Below are positions 22,601 to 63,618 of a stretch of DNA of 64,000 bases, in pieces. The DNA is from an uncultured Clostridia bacterium (GTDB lineage: Bacteria; Bacillota; Clostridia; Christensenellales; UBA1242), in the NCBI GenBank assembly GCA_947629745.1, contig CANREZ010000001.1:15300-79299 (forward strand), written 5' to 3'. The translations under genes and the position numbers were made by a program. The number at the start of each line of letters is the position of its first letter. The stretch's first letter is position 1. The notes under the pieces were generated by a model. That model was not told the origin of the DNA, ran no database searches, and saw only the letters and a list, made by a program, of their open reading frames with translations.

Positions 22601-24679
22601 ATGGAAAAGACCATAAATATCAAGAGCACGAAACGCGATTTTGATCTTCAATCCCCATCAGCTTTTAAGAGGCTAAAGAGTGAGGAGAGGGAATTAGTAG
22701 CCCGCAATTATCTAAGGAAATTAATATCCCACAATAACAAGGCCATCAATGCGTCATTTCATCAATTTAACCCAAAGTTATTTATAGATATAGCAAATGA
22801 ACGTTATTCTACCCTAAATGACCCAATAACTGCAGCACGCCAATATGTGCACAGGAATATCATGGGAATATTTAGCGGAATATTCGTTAATAGCAGCATA
22901 CAGAATAAGAATCCCGACCTAAATAGCTTGTACAATACCATCATGGATATCCACGAACAGGCGAAGAATCCAAATTCCATCATCTCACTAAGCGACCTGC
23001 CAAAGATGGTGGAGTACTACGATATCTACACCCTATATTGCTTTAACGAAGTACAAAAGACTTTCCTAGAACTCCTGCCATATGTGGGCAAGGAATTCCG
23101 TACCGTTAACGACATAACTACCTTTGTCAATAAAGTGTTAGTCAATTCACTATTCCTAAACAATCCATACTACGGCTGGCCATACTACACAATTGGTGCT
23201 ATGAATTATCCTGCTGGATGTTTTAATATAAAGAAATTCCGTTGTCACACAACTACTGCGGGTATCAAGTATCCGCTTGGTGTACCCTTTGACTATTATC
23301 AGCTAGGTTACTGCAAAGATAGTATCTCAAAGAGCACACTAAAATTCGAGGGTTCGGATAAAATTGAGGAAATATTAGCCGACCACCTAAAAGACGACCG
23401 TGCATTTTACGACGTAGAGATCCCAGTAATCAGTGACACCGAACTTGAGATACAAAAGTATATCAAGACGCACATTGCAAAGAAATTAAATGACCATATC
23501 CGCCGCGTCTACGAAGCTCACGAGGGCAGACGTGACCAATACAATTATCATTCATGGGGAATGATGCCTGAGGATATCATCATCCGTGCATATCCTGATG
23601 ACCTACTACCGGTAAAGCGCACCCTCCAATACGACACATTCCACAAGTATTTGGACGAAAACGCAAGGGCCATAAGACTTGAGGAATTGAGGCAAGATAG
23701 TTATCCAAATATTATCCGTGACAAGGATTATAGCGATAGACTAAATAGAGATGATTTCAATAATTGGCCGGGGTCAAAGAAAGACAATTTATTCAAGAAA
23801 ACTGCCGATGATGAGAAGTTCCTTGGAGACAAGATATTCCCTGTGACAATTGATGACCAATTGAGGCATGAGACCAGGTTGACATACCGCGGAATACTAT
23901 TCGCACTAAATAGAACTCCTGAACATGTCATATGCAATACTAGTAGGAATTATCTCGATGAGTACGAAGCGCTATATCATACTGGAGTAAAGATCTATCT
24001 ATACAAGAATAGTGACCAGATATATAGAGGTGCCATTTGCTACCGCATGGTGAATGAAGAAGGTGCCGACGCTGTGTACAAATTCTATGACAGCACGGCC
24101 GACAAACAATTCGAAGGTGCGGAGCCTATCAATAGCGACGATTATCACTACATCTACGATGGAGATTTCCCAAATACTAAGCGAGATAACCAAGATGAGA
24201 CCATATCCAGTGATGACAATAATGATGACACTATTGACACCAACTATGAGGATATTGACACAGAAAATACTTCAAAGGAACTTGCTCAAGACGTAATAGA
24301 CAATCTATCAAGGAAGAAAGAAAATACCGCTGCGGATAACACTGCTACAAATTATGAAGATAATTTGGATAATAGCACCGCACGAGAGAATGACGATAGA
24401 GACGCATCAGATAATTCTAGTACAAATAGTGACGCATTAACTAACAAGAAAGTTATATTTAATGATGAAGAAAAGAAAGCGCGTATTGCAAAGGAACTTG
24501 AGAAGTACATGGATGTGCGCGAAAAACGCATCGCTGTACTACAAGCAAGGCTCTATACCCTTCGCTTGCAGGAACTAGGCACACCTCTATCAATTGCCGA
24601 ACGCAATGAGATACTCTCAATTCTTTCCGAACTAAAATCTCTCGGCGTCTCCACTGATGAGCACTCCACTGATGACTAG
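22601..24679 (+). CDS. Large hypothetical protein (692 aa) with an Asp/Asn-rich low-complexity region and a C-terminal coiled coil
   Basis: The long clean ORF starts 21 nt after the PHP gene behind GGAGAC, so it is probably co-transcribed. I recognise no family. Confidence 0.6.
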   Translation: MEKTINIKSTKRDFDLQSPSAFKRLKSEERELVARNYLRKLISHNNKAINASFHQFNPKLFIDIANERYSTLNDPITAARQYVHRNIMGIFSGIFVNSSIQNKNPDLNSLYNTIMDIHEQAKNPNSIISLSDLPKMVEYYDIYTLYCFNEVQKTFLELLPYVGKEFRTVNDITTFVNKVLVNSLFLNNPYYGWPYYTIGAMNYPAGCFNIKKFRCHTTTAGIKYPLGVPFDYYQLGYCKDSISKSTLKFEGSDKIEEILADHLKDDRAFYDVEIPVISDTELEIQKYIKTHIAKKLNDHIRRVYEAHEGRRDQYNYHSWGMMPEDIIIRAYPDDLLPVKRTLQYDTFHKYLDENARAIRLEELRQDSYPNIIRDKDYSDRLNRDDFNNWPGSKKDNLFKKTADDEKFLGDKIFPVTIDDQLRHETRLTYRGILFALNRTPEHVICNTSRNYLDEYEALYHTGVKIYLYKNSDQIYRGAICYRMVNEEGADAVYKFYDSTADKQFEGAEPINSDDYHYIYDGDFPNTKRDNQDETISSDDNNDDTIDTNYEDIDTENTSKELAQDVIDNLSRKKENTAADNTATNYEDNLDNSTARENDDRDASDNSSTNSDALTNKKVIFNDEEKKARIAKELEKYMDVREKRIAVLQARLYTLRLQELGTPLSIAERNEILSILSELKSLGVSTDEHSTDD

Positions 24680-24842
24680 GACTTGCTTTGTTACTTATGG
24701 ATTAAGGCTATAAGTATTGAATGATATATGTAATATTGTTTTATTTATCTAAGTTTTATATTTTATTATTTCCATATTCTTTATATAGCAAATCTATATA
24801 TAGGCCGAGAGTGTAGGTACTTGACTGGAGTAAGAATGCCAG

Positions 24843-24894
24843 TTCAATCCCCTCAGACCGCAGACGCGGCCAGCTCCCCCTACTACGGGGCGCC
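24843..24894 (-). repeat. Solo arm of the GGGGAGCTG/CTGAGGGGATTGAGC repeat family (core only)
   Basis: As written the sequence reads TTCAATCCCCTCAG-ACCGCAGACGCGGC-CAGCTCCCCCTACTACGGGGCGCC. This is the reverse complement of the family core. Confidence 0.85.
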
Positions 24895-24928
24895 TTATAA
24901 TTATAAGGTTAAAAGCAAATTTTAATAC

Positions 24929-25011: not shown

Positions 25012-26070
25012 TTAATTCCTCAAACTATCCTCATAGTCGATGCCCATAGCCTTTTTCACACGACGGAGAGTGGATTGTGCACGCACTCTTGCCTTGGCAC
25101 TGCCCTCAAATAATATTTTATACACTTCGTCGGTGTGCTCCTCATAATACTTCCTACGAGTCCTAATTGGCTCCAAGATATCGTTTAGGATATTAGCTAG
25201 TGTTCGCTTTAACATCACGTCGCCTAGACCACCACGTTTGTAATGCGCTTCGAGTTCAGCCACATTGTTGTAACCTGGAGCATATTTTTGGATATCCGCG
25301 TCAGACGCAAATACTCTAAGGTAGGTGAATACCACATTGCCCTCAACTTTCCCCGGATCACTTACTTTGATATGGTCAGGGTCGGTGTACATACTCATCA
25401 CTTTAGCTCGCACTGTATCTGCATCATCGGATAGATAAATGCAGTTGCCGAGTGACTTGCTCATCTTTGCTTTACCGTCTGTGCCAACTAATCTTTGACC
25501 ATCTTTATTCTCTGGCAGGATGGACTTTGGCTCAACAAGAGTTGGTCCATACATAGTATTGAATGTGCGCACAATATCTCGTGTTTGCTCTAGCATTGGC
25601 TCTTGGTCGTTGCCGACAGGCACAATATTCGCATCAAACGCCGTTATATCTGCTGCTTGGCTAATTGGATAGCACATGAATCCAACTGGCAGGCTCTGGC
25701 CATTTGCTTCCTTTTGCTTGATCTCTTCCTTGACAGTAGGATTTCGCACTAACCTAGAGTACGTCACAAGATCCATGTAGTAAAATGTAAGCTCAGTTAA
25801 TTCCGGCACCATGGATTGGATGAAGATTGTCACCTTGTTTGGGTCTATCCCACAGGCTAGGTAATCACAAGCAACTTCGCGGATATTCTCACGGATTTTG
25901 CCGATATTATCTGCATTGTCACCCAATGCTTGCGCATCGGCTATCATGATGTAGTATTCGTCATAGTCACCTTGATTTTGTAGTAACACACGATTCTTTA
26001 GTGAGCCGATATAATGCCCTATGTGCAACTTCCCAGTAGGCCTATCTCCTGTCAAAATAATATTTCCCAT
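25012..26070 (-). CDS. trpS: Tryptophan--tRNA ligase
   Basis: 352 aa. It has the class I HIGH-type motif (GKLHIGHYIGS) and KMSKS. Overall it looks like TrpRS. Confidence 0.9.
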   Translation of the reverse strand: MGNIILTGDRPTGKLHIGHYIGSLKNRVLLQNQGDYDEYYIMIADAQALGDNADNIGKIRENIREVACDYLACGIDPNKVTIFIQSMVPELTELTFYYMDLVTYSRLVRNPTVKEEIKQKEANGQSLPVGFMCYPISQAADITAFDANIVPVGNDQEPMLEQTRDIVRTFNTMYGPTLVEPKSILPENKDGQRLVGTDGKAKMSKSLGNCIYLSDDADTVRAKVMSMYTDPDHIKVSDPGKVEGNVVFTYLRVFASDADIQKYAPGYNNVAELEAHYKRGGLGDVMLKRTLANILNDILEPIRTRRKYYEEHTDEVYKILFEGSAKARVRAQSTLRRVKKAMGIDYEDSLRN

Positions 26071-32440: not shown

Positions 32441-32905
32441 ATGGGAAATAGAACTGCCTTTATTGGTCATAGACATATTTTTGATAAAAACATTAGTGAG
32501 AAGTTACGAGATGCAATAATACAAGAAATTAATAATGGATGCAAACATTTTGTAGTAGGCACCCATGGAGATTTTGATCGAGCGGCACTCAATGTTTGTC
32601 GCAAACTTCGAGAGGATTATAAGGACATAAATATAGATGTAGTAATCACAAGTTTATCACAAATAAAATATAATAATAGCGTTGACTATTTGCCTAGTCC
32701 ATATAGTGACACAAATATAATAATGTATGAGATAGAGGAAACTCATTTTAAAAGAAAAATTATTGAAAGTAACAAACAAATGATTGATTCTTGTGATACT
32801 CTAATATGCTTTGTTGATGAGAATTATAAATATTCAAGTGGCGCAAAAAATGTATATCAGTATGCTAAGAAAAAAGGATTACACATTGTAAACCTCCATT
32901 CCTAG
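32441..32905 (+). CDS. SLOG-fold protein (YpsA/DUF1273-like)
   Basis: 154 aa. The TAFIGHR ... FVVGTHGDFDRAALNVCRKL ... pattern resembles DUF1273/SLOG Rossmann-like proteins. It is divergent from the XRE gene. Confidence 0.45.
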   Translation: MGNRTAFIGHRHIFDKNISEKLRDAIIQEINNGCKHFVVGTHGDFDRAALNVCRKLREDYKDINIDVVITSLSQIKYNNSVDYLPSPYSDTNIIMYEIEETHFKRKIIESNKQMIDSCDTLICFVDENYKYSSGAKNVYQYAKKKGLHIVNLHS

Positions 32906-33011
32906 ACACCCACAAGTTTAAGTATCTTCATAAAGCACTCTATTTTAAGTGATTATGATAAGCAAAATTGTTATAAAATCATATCTGATACTCTTATATC
33001 TTATCCTTATA

Positions 33012-33068
33012 GACGCCCACGAGTTCGGGGAGCTGGCAACTTTCGTTGTCTAAGGGAATTGAGCAAAC
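33012..33068 (+). repeat. Degenerate solo arm of the repeat family
   Basis: The sequence reads GACGCCCACGAGTTCGGGGAGCTG-GCAACTTTCGTTGT-CTAAGGGAATTGAGC. Confidence 0.75.
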
Positions 33069-33140
33069 TTTTCACTACCTTTCATTCGTGCATTCTGTCC
33101 TCTTATATTTTTTAATTCTATCAATATTATCTCTTCCTTA

Positions 33141-33210
33141 TTAGGCCGCCCTTAGTAAGGGGGCTGGCGGTGAAACCGCCTGAAGGGATTGAGCGGGCTT
33201 ATGTGCTTAC
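33141..33210 (+). repeat. Solo arm of the repeat family
   Basis: The sequence reads TTAGGCCGCCCTTAGTAAGGGGGCTG-GCGGTGAAACCGC-CTGAAGGGATTGAGCGGGCTTATGTGCTTAC. Confidence 0.85.
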
Positions 33211-33375
33211 ATCATATGCCAACTCTTCACTCAAAAGAAAATTGATTGTAAGGAACGCAGTGACGGAATAACGAGCACAAGTATCCTACATTAGTATAGT
33301 ACGCTTAATGCGAGTGTCACATAATTCGGCGTCCGGCTTTTCGCGCCACGCTATGCGGCGAGATATTATAGACAT

Positions 33376-44816: not shown

Positions 44817-45113
44817 CCGCGAAACCTGGAAGTTAGCTGAGCGCATAAAAAATGCGAAGCCGAGCGTATAAACGAGCGCGTGCCATTTGGGGCCCCCACA
44901 AAAATAGCTCGCGGCCTTTTGTGGAAAAAGCGAAACCCGCTAAATTCTTAATAAATCCTTATTTAAAAACCTACTTCTGGGCCAACTAAAAACTCCAGCA
45001 AAAATAGCGGAGCGGTCTTTTGCTGGAAAAGAGGCGAAGCCGCGCGAAACCTGGAAGTTAGCTGAGCGTATAAAAAATGCGAAGCTAACGCTTAAACGAG
45101 CGCGTGCTTCGCC
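44817..45113. repeat. Duplicated hairpin-rich units between tRNA-Gly and the ABC-F leader
   Basis: A ~68-nt segment (CCGCGAAACCTGGAAGTTAGCTGAGCG.ATAAAAAATGCGAAGC...AAACGAGCGCGTGC) occurs at 44817-44884 and 45040-45113. A ~48-nt hairpin segment (C.CAAAAATAGC..GCGG.CTTTTG.GGAAAA) occurs at 44893-44940 and 44993-45045. Confidence 0.8.
45070..45112 (-). terminator. Terminator-like hairpin directly after tRNA-Gly
   Basis: On the minus strand, a GCGAAGC...GCTTCGC stem of 7 bp is followed by ATTTTTTAT. Confidence 0.5.
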
Positions 45114-45115
45114 TC

Positions 45116-45189
45116 TGGAGCAGGTAGCGGGAATCGAACCCGCAACCAAAGCTTGGGAAGCTTTTATTTTACCACTAAACTATACCTGC
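45116..45189 (-). tRNA. tRNA-Gly (anticodon CCC), CCA encoded
   Basis: In reverse complement: acceptor stem GCAGGTA/TACCTGC; anticodon arm AAAGC-TTCCCAA-GCTTT; T-arm GCGGGTTCGATTCCCGC; and 3' TCCA. Confidence 0.85.
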
Positions 45190-49536: not shown

Positions 49537-49998
49537 TTACTCTCTCCAATTATCTCCCACATCTTCGGTATACATGGTGTGTGTGTCATTCAAATTTTGT
49601 GTGATGTGGCCCATGCCGCGGATCCAATCACTTGGCATTGCACTGAGTGCATCAGAATTGTACTTGCCTGTAGCGGTGAAGTACTCGGTGTTGTCCCTAC
49701 TGCCAACAGGTTTTTTGATGTAAAAGCAATTGACTAGCCTCCCATCAGTTGTCGTCCTGAGGAACTCAGATAGTGACTCAATCTGATCCTCGGATAAGTT
49801 CAGTGATAGGTCGGTGTTCTTGTCAATCACATCTTTGATGCTCATATCATTCTTATCTTTATCATGTCTTATGCATTTGTACATCACGCGCTTTGCTCTT
49901 GCTATCTTGACAATGCGCATTTTCTCTAACTTGAAATTATAACTCAACAAATCTGCAGCGGATAAAGTGTACAAATCAAAAATCTCTTTTAATCTCAT
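49537..49998 (-). CDS. Hypothetical protein
   Basis: Clean 153-aa ORF. I recognise no family. Confidence 0.5.
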   Translation of the reverse strand: MRLKEIFDLYTLSAADLLSYNFKLEKMRIVKIARAKRVMYKCIRHDKDKNDMSIKDVIDKNTDLSLNLSEDQIESLSEFLRTTTDGRLVNCFYIKKPVGSRDNTEYFTATGKYNSDALSAMPSDWIRGMGHITQNLNDTHTMYTEDVGDNWRE

Positions 49999-50535: not shown

Positions 50536-50643
50536 GGGTCAAAACCCTTTCCTGCATAAGCTATGTCCTAAGACTAACTAATCTTGCAGACATATGGGGC
50601 AAAACACTGTCATAGGTTAAAATAAATTATAATGATATAATTA

Positions 50644-51120
50644 TTAGAGGGTATCGAGTTGATAGCAAGAAAGATAAAAGCTTGCTCAATCCCCTCAGAT
50701 TGCATACGCAATCAGCTCCCCCTACTACGGGGCGCCTAAATGAGGTTATAAGCAGATAGGATAAAGATATACAAATATAAATATAAATATAATTTTAACC
50801 GATATATATTTGTCTTTTAATCAGCAGATGATAAAAAATTAGATTTATTATTGTTTCTTTCATTTTTATATTTAATATGACGACCTCATAAAGGCTCCCT
50901 TTAGTAAGGGGAGCTGGCGGAGACTTCCGCCTGAGGGGATTGAGCCGACTTACGTGCTTTCTTAGGTTCGCGCTCATGACCCACTTGTATAATTTCATAT
51001 TTATATAGGTTAAAATTAATTAAAATGAAGATATAGTATTAACTATTAACATAAAAGATAAAAATAAATTATTAACACAAGAAAATTTATTATAATCAAG
51101 GAGAGTGGCGTGCCACAAAA
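50644..51120 (-). repeat. Full-length ~470-nt composite element (copy D, inverted relative to copies F and G)
   Basis: The parts, in window order, are: an arm at 50644-50747 as reverse complement; an AT-rich core; an arm at 50881-50985; a conserved AT-rich module; and ATTATAA plus GTGGCGTGCCAC at 51089-51116. The 52-nt arm core 50685-50736 is the exact reverse complement of 62125-62176. Confidence 0.85.
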
Positions 51121-51151
51121 AGTAAATTAGAAGAGTATTAACTCTTCTTTT

Positions 51152-55294: not shown

Positions 55295-56179
55295 CTATTC
55301 TCTCTCACTCTCAACCTTTCCATCGCGCTGTGCTTCAAGTTTCTCTACTTCAGCTTTTATTTGATCAAAGACTACCTCGAATGCTTCATCTTTAAGTTCA
55401 TTATGTTTTTTATTGTTTTTTATATTTCTAACAACATCTATACCCGAAGATATCAAATACATTACGATTGAAGTTATTGCAACCAAACCAAAAGCTGAAA
55501 TGAAAAAATTTACAGCCTCTCTACCAAGATCTGGCCATAATAGTGACACAACAGTAGGAATAGGAATTAAACCCATCATCCCAAGAGTGAGTGCACGAGT
55601 AGCATTTGAAGGATGTAATATAGACCTATCATGTGAGAATTTATCTAGCACATGCAACGCATTACCATCACTGTGGCGTTGCAGTAAATTCCTAATTGCT
55701 TGGCTTACGATCTCCGGATCATGTAACTCGATGATTTCATCTATTTCTTCATTAGCTTTTTTACTACGTTCTTTACCGATACTTTTCTTGCTAAATGCTG
55801 CGGCAACATTATGATTAATAAGTTTCTTTGTAGATTCATTCAATTTAGCTTGTTCCAATGTAATTGTTAAATTAATAATATCTTCAGTCGAAGGTGGCAT
55901 ACCCCATCTGTCAATGAGCGGGTTGTCATTCATAAATTCTGTCATCCCCTCACTTAATAAAACAACAGCATCCGTTCGTGCTATTTTATCGTAATTTTTA
56001 CTTTTGATTTTACTTTCTACAGTATCAATTGTTTCGGTCCTTCTGCGTTTTTGTGCAAGTAACATTTCATTATACAGTCTCTTTAACTTTATCTCCTTGT
56101 AATTCTCTGCAAGATCACTGTATTTTGATAGCCTCTTTACTGCAATATCTGGTGATACTTTTAGGACATTTTCATCCAT
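55295..56179 (-). CDS. Hypothetical membrane protein (two C-terminal TM helices)
   Basis: The start is set at the ATG at 56179, which lies 7 nt after GGGAGGAAG. The ORF track begins 5 codons earlier, at 56194. Confidence 0.55.
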   Translation of the reverse strand: MDENVLKVSPDIAVKRLSKYSDLAENYKEIKLKRLYNEMLLAQKRRRTETIDTVESKIKSKNYDKIARTDAVVLLSEGMTEFMNDNPLIDRWGMPPSTEDIINLTITLEQAKLNESTKKLINHNVAAAFSKKSIGKERSKKANEEIDEIIELHDPEIVSQAIRNLLQRHSDGNALHVLDKFSHDRSILHPSNATRALTLGMMGLIPIPTVVSLLWPDLGREAVNFFISAFGLVAITSIVMYLISSGIDVVRNIKNNKKHNELKDEAFEVVFDQIKAEVEKLEAQRDGKVESERE

Positions 56180-56237
56180 ATCTCTTCCTCCCATTACTTA
56201 TACTTTTCTTTTAGCGTATCATGCTATACTTACCTAA

Positions 56238-56268
56238 AATATATCACCCCCCCCCCCAGAAAAGTCAA
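56238..56268 (-). promoter_or_regulatory. Promoter with a G11 homopolymer inside the -35/-10 spacer
   Basis: On the minus strand: TTGACT (56268-56263); a 19-nt spacer TTTCT-G11-TGA; then TATATT (56243-56238). The TGA provides an extended -10 TG. Confidence 0.55.
56247..56257. repeat. Homopolymeric C11 (G11 on the minus strand) tract
   Basis: This is a direct count in the sequence. I saw no other long G/C homopolymer in this AT-rich window. Confidence 0.95.
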
Positions 56269-56343
56269 CATAAAAATAAAAAACTTTCAAATTTTGGTAA
56301 ATTTTACTAATTTTATCTAAAATACATATAAAACAACAATTGT

Positions 56344-56532
56344 AGAGTGCAGTACACTACTTTCCCAGTTCTAATCAATTGTATCTTGTGTTGATGCTGT
56401 AATTCTATTTTTATCCTAATTATTTAGTGGGTCATGAGCGCGAACCTAAGTGGGTACGTAAGCCGCCTCAATCCCCTCAGGCGGTGATAAACACCGCCAG
56501 CTCCCCTTACTAAAAGGGAGCCTTATGAGGTT
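56344..56532 (+). repeat. Truncated composite element (copy E): hairpin/TTCTAAT module + AT-rich module + one arm
   Basis: The arm at 56426-56532 reads AGTGGGTCATGAGCGCGAACCTAAG...CTCAATCCCCTCAG-GCGGTGATAAACACCGC-CAGCTCCCCTTACTAAAAGGGAGCC. It ends about 100 nt before the vanW start. Confidence 0.85.
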
Positions 56533-56632
56533 TTATCTTCATTTGAGCACATAAGTGCCACACAATCCTATCTCAATCCTTTACATAAATAGTTCTCATT
56601 TACACATAATAAATGTAATTTTAGAGGGTATT

Positions 56633-58039
56633 ATGGAAAGAGGTAAGAGAAAGTCTATAACAATCTGGATAGTGGCGCTAGTGACGCTACTGCTATTCCT
56701 TGCAATTGGTGGGAATATTATCCTTGATTCCACCGATGTAGAGAGGGATAATTCGGTAAAAATTAACGGCGTGAACGTGAGTGGTGTGGACCGCACGACA
56801 GCTATCGAGACGCTAGCACAGAGATTTAACGAGCAGGCGGAGAACTTAGAAATTGTGTTACATCACGATGATCGCACCTGGCAGATAAAGGGCTCGGATT
56901 ACGAGATAAATTCAGATATCTACACTATCATCGACGAAGCGCAGAGGCGAGAAATTCTAGCCAGTGACTTCGAGGAGTCTAGAGATTTTGTGACAAACGC
57001 CAATGACGGCGACCTCGTAGTGAATTTCGATTACTTATTCGTAGGGCTATCTGACACACTAGATGAGATCATAAGTGACGTCACAGTAGAGCCGGTCAAT
57101 GCCCGTGTGGAGTTTGATACCAATGTCGACTCTGGATACATAATTTTTGATGCGCAAGTCGGCACTACAGTGGACCGCGATGCCCTATATTCTAGCATAA
57201 ATAGCCAGTACCAGTCATCAAATAGGATAGATATTGACTTGCCAATGATGGATCTTCCAGCCCAGATTGACTCCAGCGATATAGCTGGTGCGATGAACAA
57301 AATTGCATCGTTTTCCACATCCGTATCCGACAGCACGGGTAATAGGAAATACAATGTGAATCTCGCGCTATCCAAATTCGACGGAATGGTAGTTTTGCCA
57401 CATGAAAATGTTTCATTCAATAGCGTCACTGGTCCGCATACTAAGGAAAATGGCTACAAAGTGGCCACCATCATCCTGCAAGGAAAATTCACCGAGGGCG
57501 TAGGTGGTGGGATTTGCCAAGCAAGCACCACTCTATACAATGCCCTACTACTTGCCGGTCGCGATGTAACTGATGTGCAGCGCCACACCCTACCCGTACA
57601 TTATGTACCACTAGGTCTTGATGCGATGGTCGCTGAGGGTATTTCTGATATGTGTTTCTACAATAATAGTGATAGCCCGCTAATCATCCACACTTACCAC
57701 GATTCAGACAACGTGTATGTCGACCTATACAGCGCCGACCTTGACGGAGTTTCCTACAAAACTCGCAGTGAAGTGGTCCGCACTATCCCTGCAAATGACA
57801 AGGTGATATTAGATACCAACCAAAATTATTCCTCACACGTCCTCTACAAAGGTGAGCGTTACCGCATAGCTTATGCTAAGGATGGTTATGAAGTGAAAAG
57901 TTATCTCGACCGCTACGAGGGTGATACACTTACCAAGTCCACCCTACTTCGCCATGATACCTACCAACCACAAGATGGTCTAGTCGTAGAAGGCGCACTT
58001 GATATGCCCGAGGACTTCACCACAAACGATGAGCAGTAG
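56633..58039 (+). CDS. VanW-family protein (membrane-anchored)
   Basis: The VanW core GVGGGICQASTTLYNALLLAG ... HYVPLGLDAMV is present, with an N-terminal TM helix. The start is set at the ATG at 56633 (MERGKRKS), which lies behind AGAGGG. Confidence 0.8.
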   Translation: MERGKRKSITIWIVALVTLLLFLAIGGNIILDSTDVERDNSVKINGVNVSGVDRTTAIETLAQRFNEQAENLEIVLHHDDRTWQIKGSDYEINSDIYTIIDEAQRREILASDFEESRDFVTNANDGDLVVNFDYLFVGLSDTLDEIISDVTVEPVNARVEFDTNVDSGYIIFDAQVGTTVDRDALYSSINSQYQSSNRIDIDLPMMDLPAQIDSSDIAGAMNKIASFSTSVSDSTGNRKYNVNLALSKFDGMVVLPHENVSFNSVTGPHTKENGYKVATIILQGKFTEGVGGGICQASTTLYNALLLAGRDVTDVQRHTLPVHYVPLGLDAMVAEGISDMCFYNNSDSPLIIHTYHDSDNVYVDLYSADLDGVSYKTRSEVVRTIPANDKVILDTNQNYSSHVLYKGERYRIAYAKDGYEVKSYLDRYEGDTLTKSTLLRHDTYQPQDGLVVEGALDMPEDFTTNDEQ

Positions 58040-58107
58040 GTGACATGTCACGGTCCTAGACTATAAGAAAACTTTATATATAGTCAGTATACGTGAATTA
58101 AAAGATA

Positions 58108-58580
58108 CCCCCAATCCGGCGTCAGCCACTTTCCTCGTTATAATCAGTAACATCTTGTATTAATAATTTATTTTTATCTTTTATGTTAATATTTGTTATT
58201 CTAATATTTCATCCTTTATTTATTTTATTATTTAGCAGGTCATGAGCGTGAACCTAAGTAAGCCCGTAAGTCGGCTCAATCCCCTCAGTCGGTGATAAAC
58301 ACCGCCAGCTCCCCTTACTAAAAGGTAGCCTTTATGAGGTCGTTATATTAAATATAAAAATGAAATAAACAATAATCAATTTAATTTTTGTATCATTGAC
58401 CTTATAAGAGAATGATAAGAATTTGTTGTAATTATATTTTTTATTAAGTAATTAATTTTTCCCTATTTATTTTAACCTTATTTAGGCGCCCCGTAGTAGG
58501 GGGAGCTGCCACCGATTAGGTGGCTGAGGGGATTGAGCGGGCTCTTCATCCAACTTTGCTACCAACTTCACACCCACTAA
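58108..58580 (+). repeat. Full-length ~470-nt composite element (copy F)
   Basis: The parts are: a hairpin/TTATAAT module at 58108-58147; a conserved AT-rich module; an arm at 58234-58342 as reverse complement; an AT-rich core at 58343-58481; and an arm at 58482-58580. Confidence 0.85.
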
Positions 58581-58660
58581 AAATAATATCAGTATACTAT
58601 ATTATCAACCCACGAATTATTCCATGTCACTTTATACCCTACTCAGAATTTATATATTTA

Positions 58661-58689
58661 TTGACAAAGTAACTTAATATAGATACAAT
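58661..58689 (+). promoter_or_regulatory. Near-consensus promoter abutting the LRR lipoprotein start codon
   Basis: TTGACA, a 17-nt spacer, then TACAAT. The -10 ends 6 nt before the ATG at 58696 and there is no Shine-Dalgarno sequence. Confidence 0.5.
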
Positions 58690-58695
58690 GTAGGT

Positions 58696-60750
58696 ATGAA
58701 GAAGAAATGGTATACATTAATAGTAGCAATGGTGGCATTTTTGCTGCCAATTTTTACTTTGGTTGCATGTGGAGACAAACCTAATACTCCACCAAAAGAC
58801 CCAAGTGGTGACCCACCACCAGTCACGAGCACAAGTTTTCACAACATATATAGTGATAAGAAATCTATATTAGAGCAATTCTATGGCAATGAGACGAACA
58901 CTATACTTGCAGCAAATGCTCTAGGTGAAGATGGTGAGCCAAGTAATGACTCTACAGAGGAGGAAAACACCCCAAGTGAGGAGACATCATCAAATCCTGA
59001 GGAGAATAATCCAAGTGAAGAGAATCCGACTAATCCTGAGGAAAATACTGAGGAGGGTGAGGAGAATCCCGATGGCAATCCTGAGACTGACCCAAACGAG
59101 GGTGACGACGGGAATGACACACTCGATGACCTAGAACAACCTGAGGATGATTACTCCGAACCGGGTATCACTTTCTCATATTACTGCCACGAAGATGCAA
59201 ATGAAGTACTTAGCAAATATCTAATCAATCCTGACAACGTCTACTCCTGCATCACCTACAATGATGAACTAGTGTGTGTGGAATTTTACAATGACATATC
59301 CATGCAGGAATTAGTGGCTCTTAGGAAAAACCTCGAGGAATGTTATCAATTCTACAACGCAAGGAAAGACCATGGTGAAAATTTCGCTAATTACACAGAG
59401 GACTATTTCCGCCCAGGGTTATTCTACTATATTAATCACCTAGCCTTCATCAACGAAGTGCCAATCAGTGCAATACTTGGTGATGAAATAGAAAAAGACG
59501 GCCCATGCTATATCGCTAAGAAATCTCACACCCTTTTGAAATTCGTAGACGATAGATACGTCCCAGAAGATTTTGACTGGACGAATGACGAATTAAGACA
59601 CGAGACATTTGGAGGCTCTTACACCCTCCCTGAGGGAATAGAAACCATTGCCTCACAAGCCCTTGTATGTGGTGACTTTTATTATGAAAAATTGATACTC
59701 CCAAGCACAGTTAGAGTGATTGAAGATCATGCTCTATATGTGCCAGATATAGAGTTAAACGATGGACTGGAATTCATCGGCGACTATGGGATAGAGGGCC
59801 TGTCTCATACACCTCAGATCCCATCCAGTGTCACATATATTGGCGCATACGGAATATTTAATCGCGCTGAATTTTATGGGATAAATCAAGACTCATTCTA
59901 TATCGTGGATAATTGGATCTTATATAGTAAATTTGCATTAACTCCAAAGGCTTTACACATACCAGAAGGAATAGTAGGAATTGCTAAATTAAGTTTATTA
60001 AATTCCCCTACAAAATATTATATCCCAGAGAGCGTAGAATACATTTGTTACAATTTCGCAACTGGCACTGGACACATAGGATTATTCTTCGAAGCAGATA
60101 GCATGAAGGATGGTTGGACTGACGAATTGTTCGTTACTTCTTCCTTTAGAGATAATACGCGTAGATTGCATATATATTATAATTACACTGAGGCCGACGA
60201 AGAAGACTTCGAAAATGCATTAAATCGTGGTGGCAGGACTATTTGTGATGAGATGGATGAATACTACTGTTACGGACCAGAACACAACACTGACACACTA
60301 TATATCGATGCTGATGTAGAATTTATCGCCCAAGGTCTCTATTACACCGAAGTGGAGCAGATAATCGTTGACCCAGACAATCCATATTATTGCAGTGTGG
60401 ATGGCGTGATGTATTCCAAGGATATGAAGACTCTAATCTGCGTGCCATCTGCTCGCAAAAAGCCATACTCTATCCCTGAGACTGTGACAGGAATTTACAA
60501 CTTAGCACTAAATAACTTCTACGTTCATCAGAAATACATCTTCATTCCAAAAGAAGTGGTATCCTTTGGTTGGGGAATATTCTATTTCTGGGATACAACT
60601 TGCACAGTGTATTTTGAGACAAAAACTGTGAGCCCAAGTATATTGTTTAATGATATTGCATGGTCATGCTCCACAAATATGGAATTTGGCGTGACATATG
60701 AGGAATATTTGGAGGCAATCAACACTAAATACAATGCACAAATTGCATAG
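58696..60750 (+). CDS. Surface lipoprotein with an acidic Pro/Glu/Asn linker and BspA-type leucine-rich repeats
   Basis: It has a lipobox (LVACGD). LRR_5-like repeats recur: IPSSVTYIGAYGIF, IPEGIVGIAKLSL, IPESVEYICYNF and IPETVTGIYNLAL. Confidence 0.75.
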   Translation: MKKKWYTLIVAMVAFLLPIFTLVACGDKPNTPPKDPSGDPPPVTSTSFHNIYSDKKSILEQFYGNETNTILAANALGEDGEPSNDSTEEENTPSEETSSNPEENNPSEENPTNPEENTEEGEENPDGNPETDPNEGDDGNDTLDDLEQPEDDYSEPGITFSYYCHEDANEVLSKYLINPDNVYSCITYNDELVCVEFYNDISMQELVALRKNLEECYQFYNARKDHGENFANYTEDYFRPGLFYYINHLAFINEVPISAILGDEIEKDGPCYIAKKSHTLLKFVDDRYVPEDFDWTNDELRHETFGGSYTLPEGIETIASQALVCGDFYYEKLILPSTVRVIEDHALYVPDIELNDGLEFIGDYGIEGLSHTPQIPSSVTYIGAYGIFNRAEFYGINQDSFYIVDNWILYSKFALTPKALHIPEGIVGIAKLSLLNSPTKYYIPESVEYICYNFATGTGHIGLFFEADSMKDGWTDELFVTSSFRDNTRRLHIYYNYTEADEEDFENALNRGGRTICDEMDEYYCYGPEHNTDTLYIDADVEFIAQGLYYTEVEQIIVDPDNPYYCSVDGVMYSKDMKTLICVPSARKKPYSIPETVTGIYNLALNNFYVHQKYIFIPKEVVSFGWGIFYFWDTTCTVYFETKTVSPSILFNDIAWSCSTNMEFGVTYEEYLEAINTKYNAQIA

Positions 60751-60883
60751 ATTAGCTTATAGATTTAGTACAAAACAATCGAGAGTTATATGAGTTTCAG
60801 CGCACAAAATGTGTAAATTGTATTATAGTTTAATGCCTCAATATTTTGTGCAAAAAAACACGTGACTATAATTAAGATAAAAA

Positions 60884-60909
60884 ATGAGTACTTCCTGGTA
60901 CTCATTTTT
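60884..60909 (+). terminator. Intrinsic terminator after the LRR gene
   Basis: An ATGAGTAC...GTACTCAT stem is followed by TTTT. Confidence 0.65.
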
Positions 60910-61072
60910 ATGTAATATTTAGCAAATATTTTGAAACTTTTAATCTTATGTTATATGTAATTATCTACTATATCCTAATACTATTGCTGCCTATATTCTA
61001 ATATGCAAGAAATGAGTAGTGGCAAATTGTATATTAGTCAAATAAGATTTCTTTATCAATTACGTGATAAGA

Positions 61073-61618
61073 CTAATCGCGTGAAGTTTCTTTCTTTTGA
61101 TCAGCGAGATATTCCTCTAGCATAGCTTCCATTGCCTCTTTGAACTTGCCATATGGCTCAATCAAGTGGAGCTCTTGACAAATCATCTCAACAATTAGCT
61201 CTTCCTTGTCAGATGCCTCAGCTGCAATATTTTCTAGCTTTGTCAATCTCCTAGATGCCTTTCGATAACGATTTGCAAGCATGGATAGAATAGCCTTGTT
61301 GCAATGTCCACGTTCCCTTGCGTGCTCTATATATTTATACATATGACTACGAGCAGAAATTAGCGGCCAATATTGCTTGAAGTATTTATCACAAGCCTTC
61401 TCTATCTCCTCTGTATGCTCTAGTGGTGCTAGCCCCAGACCTGCAAAATATCTATTGATTATACCCACTGCCTGATAACCACGCCTTATCGCATTGTACA
61501 TTGATTCATGCAACTCATAGTCTGGCAAATCATCTGTACAAAGCGTAATATCTGACTCGAGTTTTATCTTCTTCTCCTCTTCAATTTCCTTTATGATCTC
61601 TTCACTTTTGTTTCTCAT
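61073..61618 (-). CDS. Hypothetical helical protein
   Basis: Clean 181-aa ORF. I recognise no family. Confidence 0.5.
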   Translation of the reverse strand: MRNKSEEIIKEIEEEKKIKLESDITLCTDDLPDYELHESMYNAIRRGYQAVGIINRYFAGLGLAPLEHTEEIEKACDKYFKQYWPLISARSHMYKYIEHARERGHCNKAILSMLANRYRKASRRLTKLENIAAEASDKEELIVEMICQELHLIEPYGKFKEAMEAMLEEYLADQKKETSRD

Positions 61619-61724
61619 ATTTTCCCCTCATCCTTATTGTATAACAAATAAATTTTTTGTCAAGATGTAATTTTTCGGGATAGGTGTAACTGCTTTTGTA
61701 AACCGAGCAAACATAAAAGTATTA

Positions 61725-62220
61725 AGTGGGTCATGAGCGTGAACCTAAGTAGGTCCGTAAGCCGGCTCAATGTGGCACGCCACTTTCCCAGTTATAATTA
61801 ATATATCTTGTATTAATAATTTATTTTTATCTTTTATGTTAATATTTCTTAATTCTAATATTTCATATTTATATCACTTTTTTAGTGGGTCATAAGCATG
61901 AACCTAAGTAGGTCCGTAAGCCGGCTCAATCCCCTCAGTCGGTGATAAACATCGCCAGCTCCCCCTACTACGGGGCGCCTCTAAGCGGTTGAATATAAAT
62001 AAAAATTAGGTCAAAAGAACTAATCAAAAAATATTGTAATTAGTAATGACTAAAAGAGTTTCAATTTAACTTTTATATATTTTATGTGGATATAACTTTT
62101 ATCTCTAAATAATAACCTCATTTAGGCGCCCCGTAGTAGGGGGAGCTGATTGCGTATGCAATCTGAGGGGATTGAGCGTGCCTTTTTACTATCTTATGTT
62201 CCAACTCCTCTACCCTCTAA
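61725..62220 (+). repeat. Composite element (copy G) preceded by a truncated arm fused to the GTGGCACGCCAC module
   Basis: The parts are: a truncated arm at 61725-61771; GTGGCACGCCAC-TTTCCCAG-TTATAAT at 61772-61798; an AT-rich module; an arm at 61884-61979 as reverse complement; a core; and an arm at 62121-62220. Confidence 0.85.
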
Positions 62221-62265
62221 ATATATGCAATCCTCTTACTTTTTACTATTCACTTCTACCTCATT

Positions 62266-62365
62266 AAAGGCCGCCCTTAGTAAGGGGGGCTGGCAACTTT
62301 CGTTGCCTGAGGGGATTGAGCCGGCTTTTTCTCTCTTGCTACCAACTCATGTACTCTCTATCTAT
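62266..62365 (+). repeat. Solo arm (tandem, same orientation as the 62121 arm)
   Basis: The sequence reads AAAGGCCGCCCTTAGTAAGGGGGGCTG-GCAACTTTCGTTGC-CTGAGGGGATTGAGCCGGC followed by a tail. Confidence 0.85.
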
Positions 62366-62424
62366 ATAGGTTAGCTAAACAAAAATAATAAAAATATAAT
62401 AATTAGTTAAATTAAAATAATCTA

Positions 62425-62505
62425 CCCCAGAAAAGTGGCGTGCCACCTGAGGGGATTGAGCGGGCATACATTCCCATCTTATATTCCAACTATATTCCCA
62501 CCACA
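62425..62505 (+). repeat. Variant arm: the left half is replaced by CCCCAGAAAA-GTGGCGTGCCAC
   Basis: The sequence reads CCCCAGAAAAGTGGCGTGCCAC-CTGAGGGGATTGAGCGGGC followed by a CCAACT-containing tail. Confidence 0.8.
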
Positions 62506-62535
62506 TAGTTACATAAGTACACATAATTTACATTT

Positions 62536-62595
62536 AGGAAAGTGGCGTGCCACATTGAGCGGGCTTTTTTTCCATCTGGCTACTAACTTTATTCC
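62536..62595 (+). repeat. Variant arm: AGGAAA-GTGGCGTGCCAC-ATTGAGCGGGC
   Basis: The same junction (CTCAAT|GTGGCACGCCAC) is seen in reverse complement at 61766-61783. Confidence 0.75.
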
Positions 62596-62652
62596 TTTTA
62601 AAAATAATATCATCACATTATATTATTAACCCAGAAAAGTGACATGCTACAC

Positions 62653-62678
62653 AAAAAAGACCCACCTAATGGTGAGTC
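62653..62678 (-). terminator. Intrinsic terminator after the 62783..63271 gene
   Basis: On the minus strand, a GACTCACC-ATTA-GGTGGGTC stem is followed by TTTTTT. Confidence 0.6.
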
Positions 62679-62782
62679 CTTTAACTACTGCTTATACATC
62701 TAATACTAAGATAAACTTTTTCTATCCTATATCAAGATACAACTATATCCTATCAGTGCATCAAATATCAAGATACAGTACT

Positions 62783-63271
62783 CTATTTCCTTGACACATC
62801 TAGGTTATCTAGAGCATCAGTTCCTGTATATGTACCGCCAAATGGCATAGATTGAGCGATTGATGCAAGAGTTGGATTGGCGTTTGCCTTCTCCTCAATA
62901 GCATACAGGCTCATCATAAGACTAGTAAACTTCGAATCAACAGATGCGCCTCTAGCGCCCAGCTTGATAGGAAGATACTGCCCTGCATTCTCAGCCTCGA
63001 CTAATACTTCCCTATATTTGCCGATAGCCTCATCCATTGGCTCTACATTGTCCTCAAAATTCTTAATAAGTTTGTAAAACTCTCTCGCAAATGTGAGATT
63101 CTCTAACTTATCTAGATATTCAGGACTCTCACAAATGCTATCCATACTATCCTTGTACACTCTCACTCTATCCTTCATATGCTTCACAATAGCACAAAGC
63201 CCATCAAGATTCTTGTACATAGTCCAAAATTTTTGGTCTAATTCTCTTGCTTCACACTCTTTCGTATCCAT
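62783..63271 (-). CDS. Hypothetical protein
   Basis: The start is set at the ATG at 63271 (MDTKECEA), which lies 6 nt after AGGAGTG. The ORF track extends to 63304. A TATAAT lies at 63298-63293 on the minus strand. Confidence 0.5.
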   Translation of the reverse strand: MDTKECEARELDQKFWTMYKNLDGLCAIVKHMKDRVRVYKDSMDSICESPEYLDKLENLTFAREFYKLIKNFEDNVEPMDEAIGKYREVLVEAENAGQYLPIKLGARGASVDSKFTSLMMSLYAIEEKANANPTLASIAQSMPFGGTYTGTDALDNLDVSRK

Positions 63272-63399
63272 AAAATTCACTCCTATAGTAGTATTATAAA
63301 ACAAAATAAAATATTGTCAAGACCCAAATTAAAAAAGTCTAGTCACATAGCTGCATATTATACACGGTGCGAATTCTGGACAATTTGTGCCAAACCCTC

Positions 63400-63618
63400 G
63401 GTGGATAACTATAAGATTTCCACAAATATTTGGGCACTTCTCATAAATTATAGAACACTTTTGGAACAACAATTGTGGACAACTGTGCCAAAAATTGTGG
63501 ATAAGTGGATAACTTTTGAGGATAAGGGGTCAAAATATTCATTTTTATGCAAAAAAATACACTTTGTGCATTTTATTCACAGAAATTTATAATTCATGCA
63601 TTGTGGATAAGTGGATAA
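63400..63618. promoter_or_regulatory. DnaA-box cluster (candidate oriC segment or DnaA-titration/regulatory cluster)
   Basis: Boxes complementary to TTATCCACA are as follows. Perfect TGTGGATAA occurs at 63496-63504 and 63602-63610. Each abuts a 1-mismatch AGTGGATAA (63504-63512 and 63610-63618). Other 1-mismatch boxes are at 63400-63408, 63474-63482 and 63517-63525, plus 63573-63581 in the opposite orientation. AT-rich DNA flanks the cluster. Confidence 0.65.

Follow-up and report, generated by a model that had tools for sequence, protein, structure and literature searches.

Hairpin-rich intergenic repeats in mosaic clusters on a Clostridia chromosome and their core relatives in phage contigs

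Extragenic palindromic repeats, mosaic clusters and recombination cassettes are known kinds of element. The closest described systems are the repetitive extragenic palindromic (REP) sequences of Proteobacteria, together with the bacterial interspersed mosaic elements (BIMEs) and REP doublets forming hairpins (REPINs), and the promoter early stem-loop elements (PeSLs) of T4-type phages (PMC2839356, PMC4122927). PeSLs are small promoter/terminator motifs, and recombination at them yields gene insertions and deletions (PMC4122927). Both systems are well studied in Proteobacteria and their phages, whereas cataloguing of such systems in Clostridia-like bacteria and in gut phages has been poor. The present analysis concerns a stretch of 64,000 nucleotides (nt) from an uncultured Clostridia bacterium (Christensenellales, UBA1242; GenBank assembly GCA_947629745.1, contig CANREZ010000001.1, positions 15,300 to 79,299 of the forward strand), hereafter referred to as the window. 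An initial annotation of the window had proposed three ~470-nt composite elements, D, F and G, built around inverted arms, and a partial copy, E. We describe here the repeat unit that forms these loci and its core relatives in phage contigs. The reading that we favour, with moderate confidence, is that of a structured intergenic repeat family arranged in mosaic clusters, like REP/BIME or phage PeSL elements, which has been spread and reshuffled by recombination.

When all arm-like sequences were aligned in one orientation, both arms of a composite proved to be one hairpin-rich unit of ~105 nt in opposite orientation. A covariance model (R1) was built from 11 copies of the arms and run over the window, where it finds 14 units with E-values from 1.7e-28 to 6.5e-3. 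Full-length units make up the majority (11/14, 68-109 bits, E from 5e-17 to 1.7e-28), and the remaining three are truncated (18-35 bits, E up to 6.5e-3). None of the 14 units lies in a gene, and together they occupy six intergenic regions (Table 1). Read forward, the unit consists of ACCTCAT, a first hairpin P2 (AGGC-CCCC ... GGGGAGC), the dinucleotide TG, a second hairpin P3, the box CTGAGGGGATTGAGC, and then.GGCTT ... ACCCACTAAA, the last of these ending a tail of ~45 nt. The box, a 15-mer, occurs 13 times in the window with at most three mismatches, against 1.1 occurrences expected. Two types of tail can be distinguished. The A-type tail (CGACTTACG...TTAGGTTCGCGCTCATGACCCACT) forms an extra 12-bp hairpin, and the B-type tail is pyrimidine-rich (...CTTGCTACCAACT...ACCCNCT). 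The short palindrome GTGRCRYGYCAC also recurs outside the units, at 7 sites versus 0.9 expected.

The hairpins appear to be under selection, judging from pairing that is kept while both sides of the stem change. Seven stem sequences of P3 are present among the window copies (GGCAAC, GGCGGT, GATTGC, GGCGGA, GCCACC, GGCCGC, and GTGG), nearly all of them fully complementary, and its outer pairs are 93.9% paired, with two-sided changes. P2 is more conserved in sequence than P3. In addition, the first nucleotides of the box are able to pair with ACCTCA upstream (helix P1), and a three-way junction would result. P1 is only 75% paired in the MAFFT alignment; in one copy of the tandem pair at 33001-33237 its pairing is kept through a two-sided change (CCTCA/TGAGG to CCTTA/TAAGG).

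The four composite loci were compared by multiple alignment of the regions 50630-51135 (D, reverse complement), 58090-58600 (F), 61750-62235 (G), and 56325-56560 (E). They follow a common module order with a mean column identity of 68%: a short hairpin, TTTCC(C/T)NG, TTATAAT (TTCTAAT in E), an AT-rich module of 50-100 nt, a reverse arm, an AT-rich core of 120-130 nt, and a forward arm. Module by module, D, F and G thus share the architecture that had been proposed for the three ~470-nt elements, and E, which stops after the first arm, is the left half only. The positions first given for the TTATAAT motif were correct to within 1 nt, those in G (61792-61798) and D (51095-51089) being exact and that in F lying at 58138-58144 rather than 58139-58145. 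The arms are 72-75% complementary over 60-63 nt (75% over 63 nt in D), in agreement with the inverted repeat described earlier. With respect to the cores, that of G is indeed unrelated to those of D and F. Part of the D core had been taken for a reverse complement of the F core, which it is only through the inversion of the entire D element; read in element orientation, both cores run collinearly and no flip has occurred.

Every composite consists of a reverse A-type unit and a forward B-type unit. In D, F and G the two form an inverted pair with their hairpin ends facing inward and an AT-rich spacer between them, and a second AT-rich spacer joins this pair to a truncated third unit. The truncated unit is what had been called the head of the composite, with a GTGGCRYGCCAC hairpin in place of the second hairpin. 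In G, read in unit orientation, the GTGGCACGCCAC hairpin is followed directly by ATTGAGC and a complete tail (61723-61795), the outer part of this truncated unit being the head with its TTATAAT, and the 12-mer GTGGCACGCCAC likewise replaces the second hairpin at 62435 and 62542. The layout of the composites is therefore real, but they are clusters of repeats rather than copies of one dedicated element, because the unit that makes up their arms is also found on its own, in tandem arrays, and in truncated form, and because their head is itself a truncated unit. Two more 12-mers resemble the head hairpin, namely GTGACATGTCAC at 58040-58051, right after the stop codon of a VanW-like gene, and GTGACATGCTAC at 62639-62650; between GTGACATGTCAC and GTGGCACGCCAC, pairing is kept through a two-sided change.

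The composites also form an identity mosaic, in which different modules of one locus match different loci. By pairwise repeat comparison, G shares its right arm with D (96% identity over 74 nt) and its AT-rich module with F (98% over 47 nt), and the half of the D core nearest the A-type arm is 93% identical to the F core over 69 nt. Such a distribution of identity is the pattern expected of recombination or gene conversion among copies, and would not be expected from independent decay of transposed copies.

Table 1. Repeat units, composite modules and associated motifs in the window, with scores of the covariance model R1.
Feature	Position	Strand	Evidence and context
Solo unit	24806-24912	-	R1 71 bits; between convergent genes 22601-24679(+) and 25012-26070(-)
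Tandem pair of solo units	33001-33105, 33131-33237	+	R1 68.0 and 75.4 bits; downstream of gene 32441-32905, adjoining tRNA-Ser
D right arm (element orientation), B-type (pyrimidine-rich) tail unit	50644-50749	-	R1 103.4 bits, E = 5e-27; pairwise repeats (G B-type unit)
D AT-rich core	50750-50879		Alignment; pairwise repeats (F core)
D A-type unit; tail adds third hairpin P4	50880-50987	+	R1 107.7 bits
D AT-rich module and head	50988-51117	-	Module 50988-51088; TTATAAT; hairpin GTGGCGTGCCAC 51105-51116
E half element	56344-56534	-	Head hairpin 56347-56359; TTCTAAT 56369-56375; short AT-rich module; A-type unit 56424-56534 (R1 95.5 bits)
F degenerate head and AT-rich module	58108-58231	+	TTATAAT; pairwise repeats (G module)
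F A-type unit, left arm	58232-58343	-	R1 94.2 bits
F AT-rich core	58344-58471		Alignment
F B-type unit (58472-58580) and conserved trailing AT-rich module (58581-58612)	58472-58612	+	R1 100.5 bits; trailing module recurs at 62579-62633 (78% identity)
G truncated unit	61723-61798	-	A-type tail; GTGGCACGCCAC hairpin 61772-61783; without first hairpin or box; R1 34.5 bits, E = 1.4e-7
G AT-rich module	61799-61881	+	Pairwise repeats and alignment
G A-type unit, left arm	61882-61992	-	R1 102.9 bits
G AT-rich core, unrelated to D and F cores	61993-62111		Alignment
G B-type unit, right arm	62112-62220	+	R1 108.7 bits
Three tandem units right of G	62255-62601	+	Full B-type 62255-62361 (89.5 bits); truncated 62421-62504 (34.6 bits) and 62533-62601 (18.0 bits), with GTGGCGTGCCAC hairpin
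Inward -10-like motifs	50633-50641; 58583-58591 (reverse complement); 62604-62612 (reverse complement)		Read from sequence

In their general properties these units resemble the REP/BIME/REPIN systems, since both are extragenic, multi-copy, hairpin-based and non-coding, occur singly, in tandem, or as inverted doublets with linkers, and combine a few modules in a mosaic. The alternating-orientation clusters with conserved linkers that characterize BIMEs are matched by D, F and G, as well as by doublets in a phage contig and an inverted pair in another bacterial genome described below. The differences are of size, composition and host. A REP sequence is a single imperfect palindrome of about 20-40 nt, whereas the present core measures ~55 nt and comprises two different hairpins and a box; the window unit, with its tail, reaches ~105 nt, and the A-type tail adds a third hairpin. 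No REP-associated tyrosine transposase (RAYT) was found among the scanned open reading frames (ORFs) of the 64-kb window, and the family resides in a low-GC Firmicute-like chromosome and has its core abundant in phage contigs. The unit matches nothing in Rfam or in the searchable literature, where full-text searches with motif strings returned unrelated papers. What distinguishes it is the double hairpin with a second stem of free sequence and a conserved box, the tails in this genome, and a core common to a low-GC chromosome and many high-GC phage contigs.

The window itself is ordinary chromosome, with genes for a class I (W/Y) aminoacyl-tRNA synthetase, FtsH, phosphoketolase, DinB, QueH, and a VanW-like protein. 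The nearest non-identical relatives of the VanW-like protein are 56% identical to it, and two of their contigs are syntenic with the window in the order ABC/FtsX transporter, small gene, GT2-TPR glycosyltransferase (on the opposite strand), DinB, 81-aa gene, QueH, 126-aa gene, VanW, DnaA-box cluster, and short-chain dehydrogenase. The covariance model finds no unit in these two contigs. Their intergenic regions are compact at the repeat sites; the gap that spans 617 bp at D in the window, for example, measures 76 bp in the relatives and holds a single bidirectional terminator. By tblastn, the relatives lack a counterpart of five window genes (49537-49998(-), 55295-56194(-), 58696-60750(+), 61073-61618(-), and 62783-63304(-)), and four of the five adjoin the E, F or G cluster, that is, three of the four composite loci. 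E is flanked by a divergent gene pair, 55295-56194(-) and 56633-58039(+). Three of the genes without a counterpart make up, with F and the G cluster, a 5.3-kb block between VanW and the DnaA-box cluster that is absent from the relatives. This block (58040-63310) runs from F through a 684-aa lipoprotein gene, a 181-aa gene, and the G cluster to a 173-aa gene, and its three proteins have no Pfam or NCBIfam match.

Relatives of the unit were sought in other genomes and in viral contigs. A scan of genome contigs with the bare 15-mer gave mostly chance matches among those listed, from which the covariance model picked one real locus, an Oscillospiraceae genome bin (L075) carrying two units as an inverted pair, tail to tail (E = 4e-7); the neighbouring gene resembles, by eye, one for a phage tail fibre. 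The high-GC form of the core taken from L075, GGGAGCTGTCA-N4-14-TGACTGAGGG, served as the pattern for a scan of IMG/VR and is present in at least 120 contigs, where fewer than one chance match is expected by our own estimate. A looser pattern yields at least 237 copies in the listed IMG/VR contigs, with 102 distinct P3 sequences whose first six positions are 91% Watson-Crick paired. R1 recognizes 45 of these copies at E <= 0.01, including the first hairpin, which lies outside the search pattern. Neither the A-type tail, nor the AT-rich module, nor a stricter gapped pattern was found in the viral contigs scanned. The stricter pattern matched four times in metagenome contigs, always within high-GC coding sequence, and these matches were set aside as chance. 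A likeness of the unit to CRISPR type I-C repeats (hairpin followed by GGATTGA) was likewise rejected, since the ATTGA part varies across the phage copies.

The core is dense in phage contigs, reaching about one copy per kb, with 14 copies in the 14.7 kb of L201 and 13 copies in the 12.8 kb of L143. These two densest contigs were checked against Pfam and are true phage genomes, with genes for terminase, portal, P22-type coat, and tail proteins. In the phage contigs examined, the units lie between long ORFs or at their ends, in arrays that may be tandem, of alternating orientation, or composed of inverted doublets at a fixed spacing of 125 nt. The L143 doublets, with units facing each other exactly 125 nt apart from start to start (2794/2919, 6163/6288, and 9140/9265), are REPIN-like and sit after the portal gene, before the gene for a DUF859 (siphovirus) protein, and after the DUF859 gene, respectively. 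Among the phage copies, the G-run of the box varies in length together with the C-run of the first hairpin, a co-variation that fits alternative pairing or a three-way junction. One core copy in another contig (L129, 6470-6625, minus strand) falls within an ORF of 48 codons that is rich in lysine and looks plausible (MKEAVEKTPEANSLSQPIADSSLKKGAKVEAKPAAVKKAGRPAKK); either small genes may be overlapped by some copies, or the repeat may give rise to such ORFs as artefacts.

Units of phage contigs coincide with changes in gene content. Of the internal ends of homology between related phage contigs, 5.9% are located within a unit and 14.0% no more than 30 nt from one, whereas the corresponding values for random positions are 1.1 and 2.2% (maximum 4.0% in 200 trials), which amounts to about six-fold enrichment within 30 nt. 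A direct case of presence and absence is provided by an intergenic segment of ~140 nt that bears a unit in L218 and L222 and is replaced by ~13 nt in L164, L172 and L190, with flanks that are 93-99% identical; neither side shows a duplication in the comparison of L218 with L164.

Taken with the identity mosaic and the relative-lacking genes next to three composite loci, these breakpoints suggest how the family might operate. The units, being non-coding and without a transposase, would spread and be reshuffled mainly by recombination between copies, and each would therefore serve as a portable joint for the gain and loss of accessory genes. Their hairpins, whether transcribed or extruded from DNA, would act as barriers affecting termination or mRNA stability, as may be supposed by analogy with REP and PeSL elements. 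The resemblance to PeSLs extends to small intergenic motifs with promoter-like and stem-loop parts that lie at the borders of variable genes and, as we infer for the present family, are points of homologous exchange producing gene insertions and deletions. The two differ in that they have no sequence relationship, the promoter parts of the present family are candidates only, and its double hairpin with a variable second stem is also found in a bacterial chromosome. If the unit is a recombination joint, it would offer a handle on the movement of accessory genes in gut phages and their hosts, since one structured motif connects a bacterial chromosome with the IMG/VR contigs and gene content changes at it in both. 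A covariance model of the unit would in any case help annotation, with fewer hairpins miscalled as ORFs or terminators.

Several points weigh against this reading. Recombination as the mode of spread and any effect on transcripts are inferred. The enrichment of breakpoints is partly expected and may partly reflect generally variable intergenic DNA. The nearest relatives, at ~56% protein identity, are too distant for exact empty sites, and an enzyme acting in trans, for instance a REP-associated transposase, could have its gene outside the 64-kb window. The unit is also longer and more complex than a classical REP sequence (55-105 nt, with two or three hairpins). Finally, the tails and AT-rich modules of the window units were found nowhere else, so that the link to the phage family runs through the ~55-nt core only.

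It is unlikely, in our view, that a composite is instead the gene of a structured non-coding RNA of ~350 nt, transcribed either from the TTATAAT of the head or inward from TGATAT(A/T)AT outside the B-type tail, with the inverted arms forming a long duplex with side hairpins that would likely be a substrate of RNase III or of a protein. TTATAAT is kept in D, F and G, and a sigma-70 scan reports the head of D (GTGGCA-16-TATAAT, 10/12 positions), but it reports neither F nor G, where by our own reading the spacer is 15 nt and the nearest -35-like hexamer is poor. Extended -10-like motifs of quality equal to TTATAAT (TGATATAAT or TGATATTAT) lie 2-8 nt outside three tails and face inward. Promoter-like hexamers are, however, expected in DNA this rich in AT: five occur around D, against 4.0 +/- 2.2 in shuffled sequences, which is no enrichment. 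The TTATAAT motif is thus a weakly supported promoter candidate. Readings of the region as a sigma-54 (TGGCAC-N5-TTTC) or TcdR-type promoter fitted poorly and were dropped, as was a small peptide in the AT-rich module, where the ATG frames differ among D, F and G (10-20 codons) and lack a ribosome-binding site.

Folding bears on the same question. For the F segment from arm through core to arm, a long imperfect hairpin is predicted, with -116.2 kcal/mol on the plus and -118.8 kcal/mol on the minus strand (z = -7.8 each). The potential for a long hairpin or cruciform with side hairpins, noted in the initial annotation, is thus borne out, and this very stable fold is what an RNA gene might show; the element folds equally well on either strand, and therefore no strand is identified. 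Single A-type units do favour their forward strand by 6.4-8.5 kcal/mol, through G-U (G-T) pairs (-43.9 kcal/mol forward versus -37.0 reverse for the D unit at 50880-50987), and for B-type units the strand difference lies between -4.2 and +2.3 kcal/mol. Single units fold better on the strand opposite to the transcript proposed from TTATAAT. A strong, bidirectional terminator-like hairpin follows D at 51129-51148, beyond its head; the units themselves have no T-tract terminator, and only D yields the sigma-70-like match. At the gathering threshold, Rfam 15 recognizes three tRNAs and nothing else in the window, and all that D yields under permissive settings is spurious similarity to long hairpins (microRNA precursors). 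For eight phage loci, too, only tRNAs reach the gathering score, a permissive scan of one of them (L139) returning spurious long-hairpin or terminator matches only. Moreover, solo, tandem and truncated units do not fit a single RNA gene, and the core of G is unrelated to the cores of D and F.

We assign a similarly low probability to the composites being true MITEs (miniature transposable elements with inverted repeats) moved by a transposase encoded elsewhere in the genome, with the solo and truncated units as decayed copies. A ~350-nt segment with imperfect terminal inverted repeats at its outer ends (TTTAGTGGGT ... ACCCACTAAA), an AT-rich interior and no coding capacity, present in several copies at unrelated intergenic sites, has the outward form of such an element. 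In length (100-500 nt), imperfect inverted ends, AT-rich interior, intergenic position, and the capacity to supply nearby genes with promoters or RNA hairpins, the composites resemble MITEs and the Correia, ERIC, RUP and BOX elements, the last of which are likewise modular. They differ in that no target-site duplication or parent insertion sequence was found and in that their arms are long structured units which also stand alone. No target-site duplication is seen by eye at the ends of D, E, F, G or the solo units, a test of limited power because the flanks are AT-rich and exact empty sites are lacking; the flanks tend rather to extend the inverted repeat (TTT|AGTGGG ... CCCACT|AAA). Neither a transposase or recombinase nor an insertion sequence with matching ends was found with Pfam and NCBIfam among 28 scanned ORFs of the window, including those flanking D, E, F and G, and BLAST searches with F or a single unit against plasmids and GenBank phages gave no meaningful match. 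Since neither a target-site duplication nor a parent insertion sequence was found, the earlier fallback of an ordinary MITE is unsupported. The ~100-nt arms, unlike decaying repeats, keep their hairpins through two-sided stem changes, the same unit is paired in the opposite way, tail to tail, in the Oscillospiraceae bin and in L143, and the phage case of presence and absence leaves no duplication.

Another possibility, which we hold unlikely, is that the unit is a strand-specific signal of folded single-stranded DNA (ssDNA) in Clostridia phages, be it a priming site, a hairpin promoter, or an enzyme substrate, and that the window composites are derived copies of it; in a more specific form, which seems improbable to us, the unit would act as an ssDNA three-way junction for a primase, a hairpin-promoter polymerase, or an HUH transposase, the chromosomal clusters being derived from the phage signal. 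DNA mini-hairpins are unusually stable, and the classic one, GCGAAGC, is known from the G4 priming site, RSF1010 ssiA, and the hairpin promoters of N4 (PMC13037366; PMC3201870). The commonest phage P3, TCAGCGAAGCTGA, contains this sequence. Among 63 distinct P3 hairpins of the phage copies, 33 have a C-G-closed GNA/GNNA loop on the forward strand (28 GNA and 5 GNRA), as compared with four of the reverse-complement type. In many cases the loop strand serves the flanking genes as template: in 168 non-redundant copies, a gene start (ribosome-binding site and start codon, 8-70 nt on) follows a reverse unit in 35 cases and a forward unit in 6. Such a signal would account for the mini-hairpin loops, for a density near one per kb, and for a location on the template strand immediately upstream of gene starts. 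In sequence, the P3 of phage relatives is like the G4, ssiA and N4 virion-polymerase signals (PMC13037366), being typically GCGAAGC-like on one defined strand; a replicon has one or a few of those signals, versus about one per kb here. The window units lack GNA loops, having TTTAT, GTAT, TTTC, GATTA and others instead. The orientation relative to genes is not uniform, L143 units being mostly forward, no HUH transposase or unusual polymerase was identified, and GNRA loops stabilize RNA as well. Were the loop signature nevertheless to reflect ssDNA activity, it would point to an undescribed mechanism of initiation or mobilization.

An invertible promoter switch, in which a site-specific recombinase flips the AT-rich core between the perfect 15-bp repeats GCTCAATCCCCTCAG and CTGAGGGGATTGAGC, is highly improbable despite these inverted repeats around 235-250 bp of AT-rich DNA with promoter-like hexamers, as the hairpins and core of D, F and G always keep their partner tails in one internal orientation, with no second orientation seen, the scanned ORFs include no recombinase gene, and the same units also occur singly and in tandem.

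Some further features of the window deserve mention. Nine DnaA-box-like sites (TTATCCACA, at most one mismatch) are grouped within ~220 bp at 63400-63618, and the same cluster is found between VanW and the short-chain dehydrogenase in the two syntenic contigs (L125, ~11780-11970; L126, ~6310-6530). The GC skew of the plus strand is negative over the whole window. The right edge of the window thus probably contains an origin of replication (oriC) or a DnaA-box region. Eleven consecutive C residues (56247-56257), upstream of a lineage-specific gene for a 299-aa membrane protein (55295-56194(-)), occupy the spacer of a minus-strand promoter-like site (TTGACT ... TGATATAT) and could be a slipped-strand switch for phase variation. 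Within the lipoprotein gene, a 39-nt tandem repeat (58960-59037, 72% identity) codes for an acidic, E/N/P/S-rich stretch of low complexity. A 43-nt direct repeat (44818-44860 and 45043-45085), the copies of which are 98% identical and 225 nt apart, is non-coding and located just upstream of tRNA-Gly (45116-45189).

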